32,000 nucleotides of DNA from Bacteroidaceae bacterium (GCA_963667395.2 CAXXJL010000001.1:1477329-1509328), one strand, 5' to 3'; shown: positions 11,779 to 17,522, counted from the first letter of the stretch. A program made the numbers and translations. Notes: generated from the letters alone by a model not told the origin.

Positions 11779-11786
11779 TAAATTTG
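11779..11786 (+). promoter_or_regulatory. Candidate -7 box (TAaaTTTG) of the ars operon promoter
   Basis: Matches TAnnTTTG, 38 nt upstream of the arsR ATG and immediately upstream of the palindromic operator. A second match (TAtaTTTG, 11806-11813) forms the operator spacer. Confidence 0.5.
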
Positions 11787-11793
11787 GATATGA

Positions 11794-11825
11794 ATATATT
11801 GTTCGTATATTTGCGAACAATATAT
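11794..11825. promoter_or_regulatory. Candidate ArsR operator: perfect 12-bp inverted repeat with an 8-bp spacer
   Basis: ATATATTGTTCG tatatttg CGAACAATATAT. The right arm overlaps the arsR ATG (11824-11826). Confidence 0.65.
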
Positions 11826-12150
11826 GGAAAAAGATAAAGATTACACAACAGAACAAGAACGGATAGCACGCTACGCTAAAGCAATGGGGCATCCCGCCCG
11901 TATAGCTATTCTGGATTTTCTAGCATCACAGGAAAGTTGCTTTTTTGGTGATATTCACGATGAATTGCCAATAGCCAAAGCTACTGTTTCACAACATCTG
12001 AAAGAACTGAAAGATGCCGGATTGATTCAAGGTGAGATTGAGGGCCCAAAAGTGCGTTATTGCATTGATAAAGAGAATTGGGCAAAGGCTCAGCAGCTAT
12101 TCGCTAAGTTCTATGATAAGAAATATGTGAAGAAAATCTGTTGCGGATAA
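11824..12150 (+). CDS. arsR: ArsR/SmtB-family metalloregulator
   Basis: 108 aa. wHTH region HPARIAILDFLASQESCFFGDIHDELPIAKATVSQHLKELKDAGLI. The C-terminus ends in the vicinal cysteines ...KKICCG. It is the first gene of an arsenic operon. Confidence 0.9.
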   Translation: MEKDKDYTTEQERIARYAKAMGHPARIAILDFLASQESCFFGDIHDELPIAKATVSQHLKELKDAGLIQGEIEGPKVRYCIDKENWAKAQQLFAKFYDKKYVKKICCG

Positions 12151-12165
12151 TATTTTTTTGCTTTT

Positions 12166-12187
12166 ATTGTTCGTTGTTTTGCGAATT
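12166..12187. promoter_or_regulatory. Second, partial copy of the operator (ATTGTTCG-N8-CGAATT)
   Basis: ATTGTTCG ttgttttg CGAATT lies in the 65-nt gap between arsR and the next gene. It has the same half-site and the same 8-bp spacing as 11794-11825. Confidence 0.45.
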
Positions 12188-12215
12188 ACGATTAACTATT
12201 AAATAAATATTAATT

Positions 12216-12449
12216 ATGGAAATTAGAATTTTAGGAACCGGATGTTCCAAGTGTAAGACTCTTGAAAAATTAACGCGTGAGGTTGTTGAACAAAACGGTA
12301 TTGATGCCTCTATCACAAAAGTTGAAGATATTATGGATATTATGAAATATGGGGTAATGTCAACACCTGCTCTTGTAGTAAACGGAGAAGTCGTGATTAA
12401 GGGAAGAGTACCTTCAGCAGAAGAAATCAAACAAGTATTAATCAAATAA
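12216..12449 (+). CDS. Small thioredoxin-fold redox-active disulfide protein (Thioredoxin_3-like)
   Basis: 77 aa. MEIRILGTGCSKCKTLE carries a CxxC near the N-terminus, and ...MSTPALVVNGEVV has the cis-Pro region. No signal peptide. Confidence 0.8.
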   Translation: MEIRILGTGCSKCKTLEKLTREVVEQNGIDASITKVEDIMDIMKYGVMSTPALVVNGEVVIKGRVPSAEEIKQVLIK

Positions 12450-12461
12450 AAAAAAATAATT

Positions 12462-14677: not shown

Positions 14678-14682
14678 AAGTT

Positions 14683-15099
14683 ATGAAAATATTAATATTA
14701 TGTACGGGAAATAGCTGTCGCAGTCAGATGGCTCACGGCTGGCTTCAATCGTTTGATAAATCGCTGGATGTGCATTCTGCAGGAACAGAACCTGCACCGA
14801 GAGTAAATTCAAAGGCTGTAAAGGTGATGGCGGAAGCCGGAATAGATATCAGCAACCACTTTCCTAAGAGTGTGAATCAATACCTGGACCAGGAATGGGA
14901 TTATGTAATTACGGTATGTGGAGGAGCCAACGAAAGTTGTCCTGTATTCAGCGGAAGCGTAAAGCACAGATTACACATTGGATTTGATGATCCGTCTCAC
15001 GCAACAGGTACAGATGAATTTATATGGAGCGAGTTTATCCGCGTTCGCGATGAGATTAAAAGAGGGTTTTATCAGTTTTATATTAACGAGATCTATTGA
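14683..15099 (+). CDS. arsC: Arsenate reductase, thioredoxin-coupled LMW-PTPase type
   Basis: 138 aa. P-loop CTGNSCRSQMA (Cys7), plus Cys79 and Cys86 (VCGGANESCP), with the same spacing as the Cys10/82/89 triad of pI258-type ArsC. Confidence 0.9.
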   Translation: MKILILCTGNSCRSQMAHGWLQSFDKSLDVHSAGTEPAPRVNSKAVKVMAEAGIDISNHFPKSVNQYLDQEWDYVITVCGGANESCPVFSGSVKHRLHIGFDDPSHATGTDEFIWSEFIRVRDEIKRGFYQFYINEIY

Positions 15100-15114
15100 A
15101 TTAGAGCCGCCAAT

Positions 15115-16140
15115 ATGGCAACAAATTTAGATATTCAATCATTAAAACCGGTCGTATACAGTATACCAACGGTTTCTGCCAAATTAGCTTTTTCTGATTT
15201 GACAGGTGCTTTAAAAGTGCGATTCGGCATTGGTCGGAACAATTATACTATTACGCCCGGTTTGTACAAAATTGGGAATCCTGGCAGTCAATCAGATGTG
15301 TTTGTTTCAGCTAATTATAAATTAAGCTTTGACATTCTGAGAAAGAATCTTGATTCACTGAATGCATGGATTTTGGTAGTTGATACAAAAGGTGTCAACG
15401 TTTGGTGCGCTGCAGGGAAAGGTACTTTCGGCACAGATAATATGGTAAAAAGCATTAAAAGCAGCTCATTAGAATATATTGTGAAACATCGCAGGATTAT
15501 TCTGCCACAACTTTCGGCAAGTGGTGTTGCAGCACACAAAGTAAAAGAACGAACAGGATTCAGAGCCATTTTCGGACCGGTACAGGCAAAAGATATAAAA
15601 TCATTTCTGGAAGCGGATTACAAAGCAACACCTGCCATGCGAAAAGTAACTTTCCCGATGAAAGAAAGAGGCAAACTAATTCCTGTTGATTTTATGTATT
15701 CAAGCTACAAACTACTTCTGATAATAGGCTTGTTTTTTATTTTTTCAGGTCTCGATCGCTCAGGTTTTTTATTAAAAAAAATGTTCAATACAAGCCTATT
15801 TCCATTAATCAATATTTTAGGTGGATATATTGCCGGAATAGTCGTTGCTACGTTATTTTTACCATTAATACCTTTTCGTGCATTTGCGCTGAAAGGTGCC
15901 TTTTGGGGATTAGCTTCAGCAGTTTTACTTAATAGACTATTCGACGTATCTGCCCTGGAAGGAATAAGTATGGGATTGATAAGTATTAGCATAGCATCGT
16001 TTATGACCATGAACTTTACCGGTTCATCAACCTACACTTCGCTCTCGGGTGTAAAAAAAGAAATGAAATGGGCTATCCCGTTCCAAATTACATTTATAAC
16101 ATTGGGGACAATTCTTTTCATAATTTCAAAATTAATTTGA
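15115..16140 (+). CDS. hgcA: HgcA-like membrane-anchored corrinoid protein (mercury-methylation corrinoid protein family)
   Basis: 341 aa. GVNVWCAAGKGTFG (Cys98, nt 15406-15408) is an exact match to the N(V/I)WCA(A/G)GK cap-helix signature. The N-terminal about 190 aa are soluble and the C-terminal about 150 aa hold about 5 TM helices. It is followed 1 nt later by an HgcB-like ferredoxin. Confidence 0.8.
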   Translation: MATNLDIQSLKPVVYSIPTVSAKLAFSDLTGALKVRFGIGRNNYTITPGLYKIGNPGSQSDVFVSANYKLSFDILRKNLDSLNAWILVVDTKGVNVWCAAGKGTFGTDNMVKSIKSSSLEYIVKHRRIILPQLSASGVAAHKVKERTGFRAIFGPVQAKDIKSFLEADYKATPAMRKVTFPMKERGKLIPVDFMYSSYKLLLIIGLFFIFSGLDRSGFLLKKMFNTSLFPLINILGGYIAGIVVATLFLPLIPFRAFALKGAFWGLASAVLLNRLFDVSALEGISMGLISISIASFMTMNFTGSSTYTSLSGVKKEMKWAIPFQITFITLGTILFIISKLI

Positions 16141-16141
16141 T

Positions 16142-16444
16142 ATGAAAACAATGCAATATTTAAAGAATGTAGCTACATTAAAGCTTAACAGTAATTTATG
16201 TACCGGTTGTGGAATGTGCACTATGGTTTGCCCTCATGCTGTTTTTGAAATTAATAAGGGAAAAGCACGAATTATAGACATTAATGATTGCATGGAATGT
16301 GGAGCATGTTCTAACAATTGCCAATTTGGAGCTTTAACTGTAAAATCAGGTGTAGGGTGCGCTGCAGGGATACTCAATGGTATTTTAAAAGGGACTGAAC
16401 CTTCATGCGATTGCGGAGAAGATCGTAAAAAAGATTGTTGCTAA
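16142..16444 (+). CDS. hgcB: HgcB-like 2[4Fe-4S] ferredoxin
   Basis: 100 aa. Two CX2CX2CX3C motifs ([24 protein letters not shown]), a lone Cys73 (VGCAAG) and C-terminal ...[13 protein letters not shown] ending in vicinal Cys99-Cys100. Confidence 0.8.
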
Positions 16445-16475
16445 TCATCATTTTCAAATTATCAAATATCTATAT

Positions 16476-17522
16476 ATGGAAACAAAACTAAAATTTTTAG
16501 ACCGCTACCTCACTCTGTGGATATTCATTGCCATGTTTATCGGTGTATCTATAGGTTATTTATATCCTGGAATAGTAGACTTCTGGCATCAGTTTGAAGT
16601 TGGGACAACCAATCTTCCTTTGGCTATTGGACTGATTGTTATGATGTATCCTCCTCTGGCCAAAGTAAAATACGAAGAGCTTGGCAAAGTTTTCTCAAAT
16701 AAGAAGATATTAATAATCTCACTGTTTCTGAATTGGGTGGCAGGACCAATACTTATGTTTATTCTGGGGATTGTATTCCTTCAGAATTATCCTGAATATA
16801 TGTATGGGATAATTATGATTGGATTGGCGCGCTGTATTGCCATGGTATTGGTGTGGAACGATCTGGCCAAAGGCAGTTCGGAATATGGTGCCGGACTGGT
16901 GGCTCTCAACAGTATTTTCCAGGTATTGTTCTTCTCTTTCTATGCTTATCTCTTCATTGCTGTACTGCCCGGATATTTTGGCTTGCCTACTACAAATGCA
17001 GTAGAGAGTATTACTATTGGAGAAATAGCCCACAGTGTGTTTATCTATCTGGGCATTCCCTTCATTGCAGGTTTTTTATCAAGATACATTCTTATCCGCA
17101 TAAAAAACAAAGAATGGTATTACAGTAAATTCATTCCAAAGGTAAGTCCGTTGACGCTCATTGCTTTGTTGTTCACCATCATTGTGATGTTCTCATACAA
17201 AGGAGAATATATTGTAAAACTACCTCTTGACGTGTTACTCATTGCAGTTCCACTGATAGCTTATTTCGCCATCATGTTCTTTTTCTCATTTTGGCTGACC
17301 AAAAGATCTGGTGCCGATTATGAAAAGACCACTTCCGTAGCTTTCACTGCTTCCGGAAATAACTTCGAGCTAGCCATTGCTGTTGCAATTGCAGTATTCG
17401 GGATCAATTCCGGAGTCGCATTTGCAGCTGTTATTGGTCCATTGGTAGAGGTTCCTGTTCTTATTCTGTTGGTGAGATTTGCATTGAAACAACAAAAAAG
17501 GTTTAAGAAAACAATAATATAA
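16476..17522 (+). CDS. acr3: ACR3-family arsenite efflux transporter
   Basis: 348 aa, about 10 TM. N-terminus [20 protein letters not shown], plus the [13 protein letters not shown] motif with the conserved Cys and [15 protein letters not shown], typical of Acr3/ArsB (BART superfamily). Confidence 0.9.

Follow-up and report, generated by a model that had tools for sequence, protein, structure and literature searches.

The native function of HgcAB and the control of its natural expression are long-standing questions of mercury biogeochemistry, and the linkage of hgcAB to arsenic genes is a recognised clue, not a discovery. In metagenome-assembled genomes, hgcAB regions were found to have acr3 and arsC on their flanks, arsR-like genes close by and in some cases arsM as well (McDaniel et al. 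2020, mSystems, PMC7438021, Fig. 6), and acr3 and arsC were present wherever arsR-like genes precede hgcA, in bins with lower in situ hgcA expression (Peterson et al. 2025, PMC11984097, Fig. 4c). The association spans several phyla including Bacteroidetes (PMC7438021, PMC11984097). Here we describe an arsenic-resistance (ars) gene cluster containing hgcAB in a stretch of 32,000 nucleotides (nt) from Bacteroidaceae bacterium (GCA_963667395.2 CAXXJL010000001.1:1477329-1509328), below called the window, with positions counted from its first letter. An earlier note on this DNA, made from the sequence alone, had taken complete ars linkage around hgcAB to be undescribed, a belief outdated by the two reports above and by Gionfriddo et al. 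2022. Like the published loci, in which hgcAB stands directly between or beside acr3 and an arsC of thioredoxin type, downstream of an arsR-like gene, the locus in the window is an instance of that association, not a new kind of system. As far as our literature search reached, the McDaniel and Peterson reports describe neighbourhoods and not operon anatomy, and we did not find in them arsEFG-arsP in the same transcription unit, an operator with its promoter, a two-Cys ArsR, or hgc+ and hgc- alleles at one locus. Four details appear to be new: a -7 box placed within the operator, an hgcAB that lacks a promoter of its own throughout the clade, an ArsR of the two-Cys type, and the occurrence of one operon in natural hgc+ and hgc- versions.

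Gionfriddo et al. 2022/2023 (10.1101/2022.10.17.512643) examined the arsenic link by experiment in Pseudodesulfovibrio mercurii ND132. In that strain an ArsR co-transcribed with hgcAB controls hgcAB, and arsenic raises expression. Loss of hgcAB made the strain somewhat less tolerant of As(V), not of As(III), the summary of the study speaks of no significant loss of arsenic resistance without hgcAB, and no mono- or dimethylarsenicals were detected when ND132 was given As(III) or As(V) (10.1101/2022.10.17.512643). We found no direct test of HgcAB on arsenic beyond this work in the literature searched. The likeness to our locus lies in an ArsR-family repressor co-transcribed with hgcAB and in expression raised by arsenic, both of which would apply to the window by its anatomy. 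In contrast to the window, the ND132 arsR2-hgcA-hgcB locus has no other ars genes, its ArsR2 carries a four-Cys motif where the window ArsR has Cys39, Cys80 and a C-terminal Cys-Cys, and its HgcA type probably belongs, judging from deltaproteobacterial loci, to the half of the HgcA tree that is mostly not linked to ars genes.

The closest relative of the regulatory part is the arsRMC operon of Arsenicibacter rosenii SM-1 (PMC11868830). Its repressor ArArsR belongs to the same Bacteroidota subtype, with equivalents of Cys41/Cys82 and a C-terminal Cys-Cys in both proteins, and its footprinted operator ATCG-TAATATTG-CGAT is short and palindromic, has an 8-nt spacer of TA..TTG-like sequence and overlaps the promoter, an architecture resembling that of the putative operator in the window. 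The whole A. rosenii operon is transcribed from the arsR promoter, as we suggest for the window. However, the window ArsR lacks equivalents of ArArsR Cys43 and Cys80 (Phe41 and Arg78 instead), and the A. rosenii operon carries an S-adenosylmethionine (SAM)-dependent arsM, not hgcAB, in an aerobic host. For the organoarsenical genes, the relatives are arsEFG of Shewanella putrefaciens 200 and arsP of Campylobacter jejuni (Chen, Zhang & Rosen 2019; Chen et al. 2015). There the genes are encoded in ars operons under ArsR, as in the window, and their activities are nitro reduction of roxarsone and nitarsone and efflux of methylarsenite (MAs(III)) or trivalent roxarsone (Rox(III)); ArsP function is known only for C. 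jejuni ArsP. The window proteins resemble them in sequence, and their host, unlike those of the two described systems, is an anaerobic Bacteroidales.

We consider it likely that the window, from an uncultured Bacteroidales bacterium, holds a single, chromosomal, ArsR-repressed arsenical-resistance operon of nine cistrons, in which hgcAB is an optional cassette that sits in the 15 nt between arsC and acr3 and is read from the promoter of arsR. An open reading frame listing of the window gave nine plus-strand genes in the order arsR-arsE-arsF-arsG-arsP-arsC-hgcA-hgcB-acr3 (11824-17522), separated by gaps of only 65, 12, 9, 11, 5, 15, 1 and 31 nt. The repressor is the first gene, and a palindromic operator overlaps its own promoter (Table 1). 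The terminator scan found no terminator-like sites within the operon except one weak 5-bp stem in arsP, and the hairpin after acr3 (-19.4 kcal/mol; z = -5.6 against shuffles) lies between the convergent acr3 and tilS genes. Coordinates, profile searches and hairpin scan agree with the earlier note on the nine genes, their spacing and order, and on its statement that no strong hairpin occurs before the end of the cluster. Upstream of the operon, between the convergent NMO and ABM genes, we observed a strong bidirectional terminator-like hairpin with a 15-17 bp stem (11301-11337), which would shield the ars operon from upstream transcription. No cobalamin riboswitch or other curated RNA element was found by an RNA-element search at the locus.

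Because the DNA is Bacteroidales and AT-rich, a sigma-70 consensus scan gave no information, with 23 sites where 23.2 were expected, and we scanned instead for the Bacteroidetes consensus TTTG-N17-23-TAnnTTTG. The full pattern has four plus-strand matches in the 32-kb window, and the cluster holds one of them, before arsR. The remaining three are situated just 5' of gene starts, at 10125 (NMO gene, 10136), 18998 (feoB, 19027) and 21765 (tRNA-Cys, 21816), and for this reason we regard the pattern as a valid promoter indicator in this genome. The -7 box of the arsR promoter forms the 8-nt spacer of the putative ArsR operator, whose arms are 100% complementary, a match count reached by 0/100 shuffles. 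This operator is conserved, in every case with a TAnnTTTG spacer, 5' of arsR in six related loci (L003, L004, L013, L015, L016 and L017); in L003 and L004 it is placed ~30 nt 5' of arsR. In the window just ~10 nt separate the end of the -7 box from the start codon of arsR (11806-11826), and the arsR message may therefore be leaderless or nearly so. The arsR-arsE spacer contains a second, degenerate operator-like site, an equivalent of which follows arsR in L003 and L004. Its own spacer is TTGTTTTG, without the TA of a -7 box, and the site could act as a roadblock or belong to a second regulated promoter.

We then compared loci across genomes. The survey covered 31 genome loci and 80 metagenome loci, with counts taken among those with enough flanking sequence, and loci with HgcA at least 60% identical were assigned to a Bacteroidota clade, those below 60% to the others. 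In the Bacteroidota-clade loci, TAnnTTTG boxes were sought within 150 nt upstream of each gene. Such a box precedes arsR in 17/22 loci, eight of them with the full -33/-7 pattern, as compared with a background in random segments of 8.3% for the box and 0.6% for the full pattern. The other genes gave 2/22 for arsC, 1/23 for hgcA, 0/24 for hgcB and 1/17 for acr3, and the sole case at hgcA was L010, where hgcA is the first gene of its cluster. This clade-wide survey is the strongest computational evidence that hgcAB would be read from the arsR promoter, and it agrees with the ArsR control and arsenic induction of hgcAB in ND132. The earlier note had proposed that expression of this hgcAB is arsenic-responsive; the single promoter inside a palindrome, the operator in six other loci, the near absence of hgcA boxes and the ND132 precedent all point the same way.

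From the anatomy and the footprinted ArArsR, an ArsR dimer would bind the palindrome around the -7 box and block initiation. Binding of a trivalent arsenical to Cys39 and Cys80, possibly together with the C-terminal Cys-Cys, would release the repressor, and the spacing, the lack of internal promoters and terminators and the conservation of the arrangement suggest that one transcript would then run from arsR to the hairpin after acr3. According to what is known of these families, ArsC would reduce arsenate and Acr3 export arsenite, and ArsEFG and ArsP would handle trivalent organoarsenicals. HgcAB would be produced at the same time.

The cysteines of the repressor bear on the inducer. In ArArsR (Arsenicibacter, Bacteroidota), the As(III) response requires Cys41, Cys80 and Cys82, and the C80S mutant senses MAs(III) and not As(III) (Zhang et al. 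2025, PMC11868830). We obtained the relevant ArArsR segments, KKAC41VC43GDLVDEL and EINPPRVC80YC82INEAVW, by translating the mutagenic primers of that paper (PMC11868830); they align with QESC39FFGDIHDEL and EIEGPKVR78YC80IDKENW of the window ArsR. Two of the three ArArsR ligands are therefore present (Cys39 and Cys80, equivalent to C41 and C82), which form the pair for MAs(III), and the equivalent of C80 is Arg78. None of the characterised three-Cys As(III) sites, i.e. R773 C32/C34/C37, AfArsR C95/C96/C102, CgArsR C15/C16/C55 and ArArsR C41/C80/C82, is found in the window ArsR, whose clade conserves Cys39 (SC[F/Y]FGD), Cys80 (YCI) and the C-terminal Cys-Cys. A vicinal C-terminal Cys pair is the MAs(III) site of the MAs(III)-selective Shewanella SpArsR. 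With Arg78 in the place of the third As(III) ligand, the inducer may, by analogy with the ArArsR mutant, be methylarsenite or aromatic trivalent arsenicals rather than arsenite, which would fit the presence of arsEFG-arsP. If so, the methylmercury output of abundant fermentative Bacteroidales could track exposure to organoarsenicals, a tie that would bear on predicting methylmercury formation. The ArsRs of short arsR-arsC-hgcAB-acr3 operons have three cysteines (TC..GD plus YCLC), and a deltaproteobacterial hgcA-linked ArsR (L025) has the full CVC...CYC set.

Several points weigh against this interpretation. Weak boxes of the -7 type only are present within arsP at 13852 and 14611, internal promoters of non-consensus type could exist, and the single transcript in this organism was deduced from sequence anatomy. 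The ligand specificity of ArsR was deduced from mutants of a homologue, and arsenite could be sensed after all if the conserved C-terminal Cys-Cys provided the third ligand. No member of the Bacteroidales had been experimentally confirmed as an Hg methylator as of 2020 (Peterson et al. 2020). Finally, an operon read from the arsR promoter does not account for the reason why selection keeps hgcAB at this position.

The earlier note had suggested counting how often hgcA has ars genes within 5 kb. Our tblastn queries were the window's own proteins, so that arsM, arsB and glutaredoxin-type arsC fell outside the query set and the linkage counts are lower bounds. On this basis at least 23/25 Bacteroidota-clade loci, as compared with 16/55 of the others, have an ars structural gene within 5 kb of hgcA. 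In the same two groups, arsC lies directly upstream of hgcA in 16/22 and 8/63 loci, acr3 downstream in 12/19 and 7/41, both genes flank hgcAB in 11/16 and 3/35, and arsP is found within 5 kb of hgcA in 8/22 and 0/41. The full nine-gene order recurs in five further genomes (L013-L017) and in L116, the arsR-arsC-hgcA-hgcB-acr3 core in many other loci, and rearranged yet linked versions in L003, L004, L010, L011 and L030. In an HgcA tree the linked loci occupy one large subtree (Bacteroidota and sister clades), with nearly none in the deltaproteobacterial-type half. The distribution points to hgcAB-ars linkage as an old, repeatedly reshuffled trait of one large branch of the HgcA tree.

The genes that flank the operon in the window were shared by 0/31 genome loci, and a chromosomal position conserved throughout the wider clade was rejected; congeners with shared flanks (L112, L114, L115 and L116) were located via exact-protein look-ups. 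L116 is from the same species (95-99.9% nucleotide identity) and has the identical nine-gene operon. L112, L114 and L115 have the same neighbours (NMO and ABM, then tilS and feoB) and the same arsR-E-F-G-P-C genes, and in them acr3 follows arsC after 15 nt, with neither hgcAB nor arsM in the operon. This shows that the seven-gene operon including arsP is a complete unit without hgcAB. Since these congeners retain arsP, its presence needs no HgcAB product, and hgcAB seems to be an optional extra, not the centre of a novel arsenic pathway. When compared with the hgc-less congeners, the cassette junctions have no repeats beyond 2-4 nt of microhomology and no mobile-element scars. Among themselves the hgc-less operons share 94-99% identity, as against 80-87% for the flanking tilS and feoB, which suggests that ars operons have been exchanged by recombination within the genus. 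The arrangement is not unique to this genome, a possibility that the earlier note had raised, since it recurs in L013-L017 and L116. The locus offers a cleaner experimental handle on hgcAB, namely a Bacteroidales clade in which hgcAB would lack a promoter of its own and depend on the ArsR promoter and operator, and the natural nine-gene (hgc+) and seven-gene (hgc-) versions at one chromosomal site permit direct comparison.

The alternative that survives best is compatible with the regulatory model, as it concerns the substrate only. HgcAB of this clade would move the methyl group of a Cys-ligated methyl-corrinoid to thiol-bound As(III), yielding methylarsenite without SAM for export by ArsP, with Hg methylation as a side reaction. 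We think this unlikely, and are just as doubtful of its wider form, in which thiol-bound As(III) would be the physiological substrate throughout the ars-embedded HgcA branch, a two-Cys, MAs(III)-sensing ArsR would give feed-forward induction and ArsP would export the product. If it were true, mercury would be methylated incidentally by a system that serves arsenic. Methanogen extracts have been reported to methylate arsenic in a methylcobalamin-dependent manner, and the supposed transfer to As(III) has a chemical parallel in the reaction proposed for Hg(II)-thiolates. The arsC-hgcA-hgcB-acr3 order is kept across HgcAs that are only 45-80% identical, no arsM was seen in the operons examined (the locus survey made no arsM query), the ArsR appears tuned to MAs(III) and shares its operon with ArsP, loss of hgcAB made ND132 more sensitive to As(V), and the assignment of a substrate to Bacteroidales HgcAB rests on sequence. 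However, L112, L114 and L115 keep arsR-EFG-arsP-arsC-acr3 without hgcAB or arsM, so that ArsP must serve imported organoarsenicals there, and arsP is close to hgcA in a minority of the clade loci (8/22) and in none of the 41 others. ND132 made no methylarsenicals from As(III) or As(V), and the Cys content of HgcA and HgcB does not set ars-linked loci apart from unlinked ones. The route from HgcAB through methylarsenite to ArsP, which the earlier note had offered as its more speculative idea, is unsupported, though not refuted; the evidence gathered here tilts against this form of the idea, in which ArsP is coupled to HgcAB.

We also considered whether the linkage is positional only, hgcAB occupying a permissive spacer with an unrecognised promoter of its own, independent of ArsR and arsenic. 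The presence or absence of hgcAB at the site among congeners with clean junctions would suit this, as would the -7-only box at 14611, 72 nt before arsC, and the uninformative sigma-70-type scan. Just 15 nt are available before hgcA, however, no TAnnTTTG box precedes it in 22/23 clade loci as compared with a box at 17/22 arsR genes, ars genes lie within 5 kb in 23/25 clade loci, divergent lineages share the arrangement, and ArsR control was demonstrated in ND132; we regard a purely positional linkage as quite improbable. Least credible to us is a role of HgcAB in arsenic tolerance without methylation of arsenic, e.g. as a low-potential redox/corrinoid module that protects or replaces an arsenite-sensitive one-carbon/thiol process or aids arsenate handling: ND132 without hgcAB is more sensitive to As(V) and not to As(III), ars operons recruit metabolic protectors (FolE in the literature, GshAB in related hgc+ operons) and hgcAB directly follows arsC in 16/22 clade loci, but such a role has no biochemical precedent, the summary of the ND132 study speaks against a significant loss of resistance without hgcAB, and the congeners manage without it.

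An operon read as one unit from the arsR promoter is the interpretation we retain, and the assignment of its genes (Table 1) was made by profile searches, with bit scores compared with curated cut-offs.

Table 1. Features of the ars-hgcAB locus in window coordinates, with bit scores given against the cut-off of the profile
Feature	Position	Strand	Remarks
Bacteroidetes-type promoter	11783-11813	+	-33 TTTG 11783-11786, 19-nt spacer, -7 TATATTTG 11806-11813; consensus pattern scan
Putative ArsR operator	11794-11825		perfect 12-8-12 inverted repeat ATATATTGTTCG-N8-CGAACAATATAT; abuts arsR ATG
arsR, ArsR/SmtB repressor, 108 aa	11824-12150	+	65.9 bits vs 55; Cys39, Cys80, C-terminal Cys106-Cys107
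Second, degenerate operator-like site	12167-12188		TTGTTCG-N8-CGAATTA, 2 mismatches; in arsR-arsE spacer
arsE-like, MTH895/ArsE thioredoxin-fold protein, 77 aa	12216-12449	+	122.3 bits vs 62
arsF-like, 143 aa	12462-12893	+	NF040494, 109.7 bits vs 60; N-terminus signal peptide-like
arsG-like, DsbD_2-fold membrane transporter, 233 aa	12903-13604	+	NF040495, 315 bits vs 200
arsP-family permease, 353 aa	13616-14677	+	Pfam ArsP_1 PF03773, 251.6 bits vs 32.3; TPFCSCS motif
arsC, thioredoxin-type low-molecular-weight protein tyrosine phosphatase arsenate reductase, 138 aa	14683-15099	+	profile search; TGA stop
hgcAB cassette, 1,360 bp	15102-16461	+	absent from L112, L114 and L115
hgcA, 341 aa	15115-16140	+	404.9 bits vs 275; corrinoid domain, NVWCAAGK, C-terminal membrane domain
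hgcB, 2x[4Fe-4S] ferredoxin, 100 aa	16142-16444	+	120.3 bits vs 99
acr3, arsenite efflux permease, 348 aa	16476-17522	+	TIGR00832, 447.4 bits vs 282.8
Bidirectional intrinsic terminator	17569-17629		between convergent acr3 and tilS; arms 17569-17592 and 17606-17629
hgc-less operons of congeners	L112:5141-9476, L114:3141-7476, L115:3141-7476		counterpart of window 11824-17522

ArsE, ArsF and ArsG are encoded side by side in that order and all three score above their NCBIfam cut-offs; by these matches we identify the thioredoxin-fold, secreted CxxC and CcdA/DsbD-like products as the published arsEFG organoarsenical module. The arsP product scores under the SaoE and SO_0444 cut-offs, and its TPFCSCS motif is one that we take as the mark of a functional ArsP. 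ArsC misses the pI258 equivalog cut-off (TIGR02691; 130.9 bits vs 174.3), and its translation contains a redox triad of C7-X5-R13 (the CX5R P-loop), C79 and C86, in which C7/C79/C86 presumably correspond to C10/C82/C89 of pI258. As the earlier note had read it, no ArsM, ArsA, ArsD, ArsH or ArsI was found among the nine cluster products by the profile searches.

HgcA matches NF040863 over model positions 1-324 of 325. In a 12-sequence alignment, the columns of its cap-helix motif NVWCAAGK with the Co-ligating Cys98 are invariant or nearly so, and the C-terminal half, which is hydrophobic, can be aligned over its whole length with those of other HgcAs, including an invariant block NFTG.ST.TSLSGV.KE that was defined by the alignment, the membrane character being suggested by hydrophobicity. 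HgcB (NF040864) has two CX2CX2CX3C motifs (C20/23/26/30 and C50/53/56/60), Cys73 and a C-terminal C99-C100. The gene begins 1-10 nt 3' of hgcA, as an alternative start at Met4 (16151), the one called in the same-species L116, would give 97 aa and a 10-nt gap. HgcAB appears complete and canonical and should methylate thiol-bound Hg(II).

The arsC TGA shares its reading frame with hgcA, 15 nt downstream (15097-15117). An N-terminal Cys-selenocysteine (CU) extension has been described for most HgcAs (Haft preprint). We rejected both a selenocysteine-extended HgcA and an ArsC-HgcA read-through fusion, because the upstream in-frame TGA is the stop codon of arsC, the residues before it read ...NEIY and contain no CU motif, and from residue 17 onwards the protein accounts for the full HgcA model. 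An arsenic-specific Cys signature in HgcB or HgcA was likewise rejected: the tails of HgcB read CxC...CC at ars-linked loci and CCC...CC at unlinked deltaproteobacterial ones, and both types are Cys-rich and not discriminating.

A mobile-element origin of the cluster or cassette was rejected in view of the housekeeping flanks, the clean junctions and an unremarkable base composition. The nearest transposase, of the ISL3 family (21999-22952), lies 3' of feoB together with the tRNA-Cys gene (21816-21887). A similar transposase is found in the same region of hgc+ L116 and hgc- L112, not in L114 or L115, and is not tied to the cassette since it occurs with both alleles. In L114, a group II intron reverse transcriptase (RVT_1 and GIIM; L114:361-1764) is inserted between NMO and ABM, just 5' of the ars operon.

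Related hgc+ operons carry extra cistrons. An ArsN2 acetyltransferase gene (147 bits vs 125) is located between hgcB and acr3 in L013 (11529-11966), L015 and L016, and a bifunctional glutathione synthetase gene, gshAB, occupies the same position in L005 (1883-4231). A P5CR-like NAD(P) reductase gene adjoins arsP in L013 (8778-9563), L014 (8730-9548) and L003 (12781-13641). ArsM was absent from those operons with extra cistrons that were examined. The closest HgcA (81%) is encoded in L001 (JAENWI010000026.1), a Bacteroidales-type arsR-arsC-hgcAB-acr3 operon in a metagenome-assembled genome labelled Peptostreptococcaceae, a label that probably reflects a binning error or a transfer. Two tandem arsC copies are present in each of L001 and L002 (L002:8763-9979).

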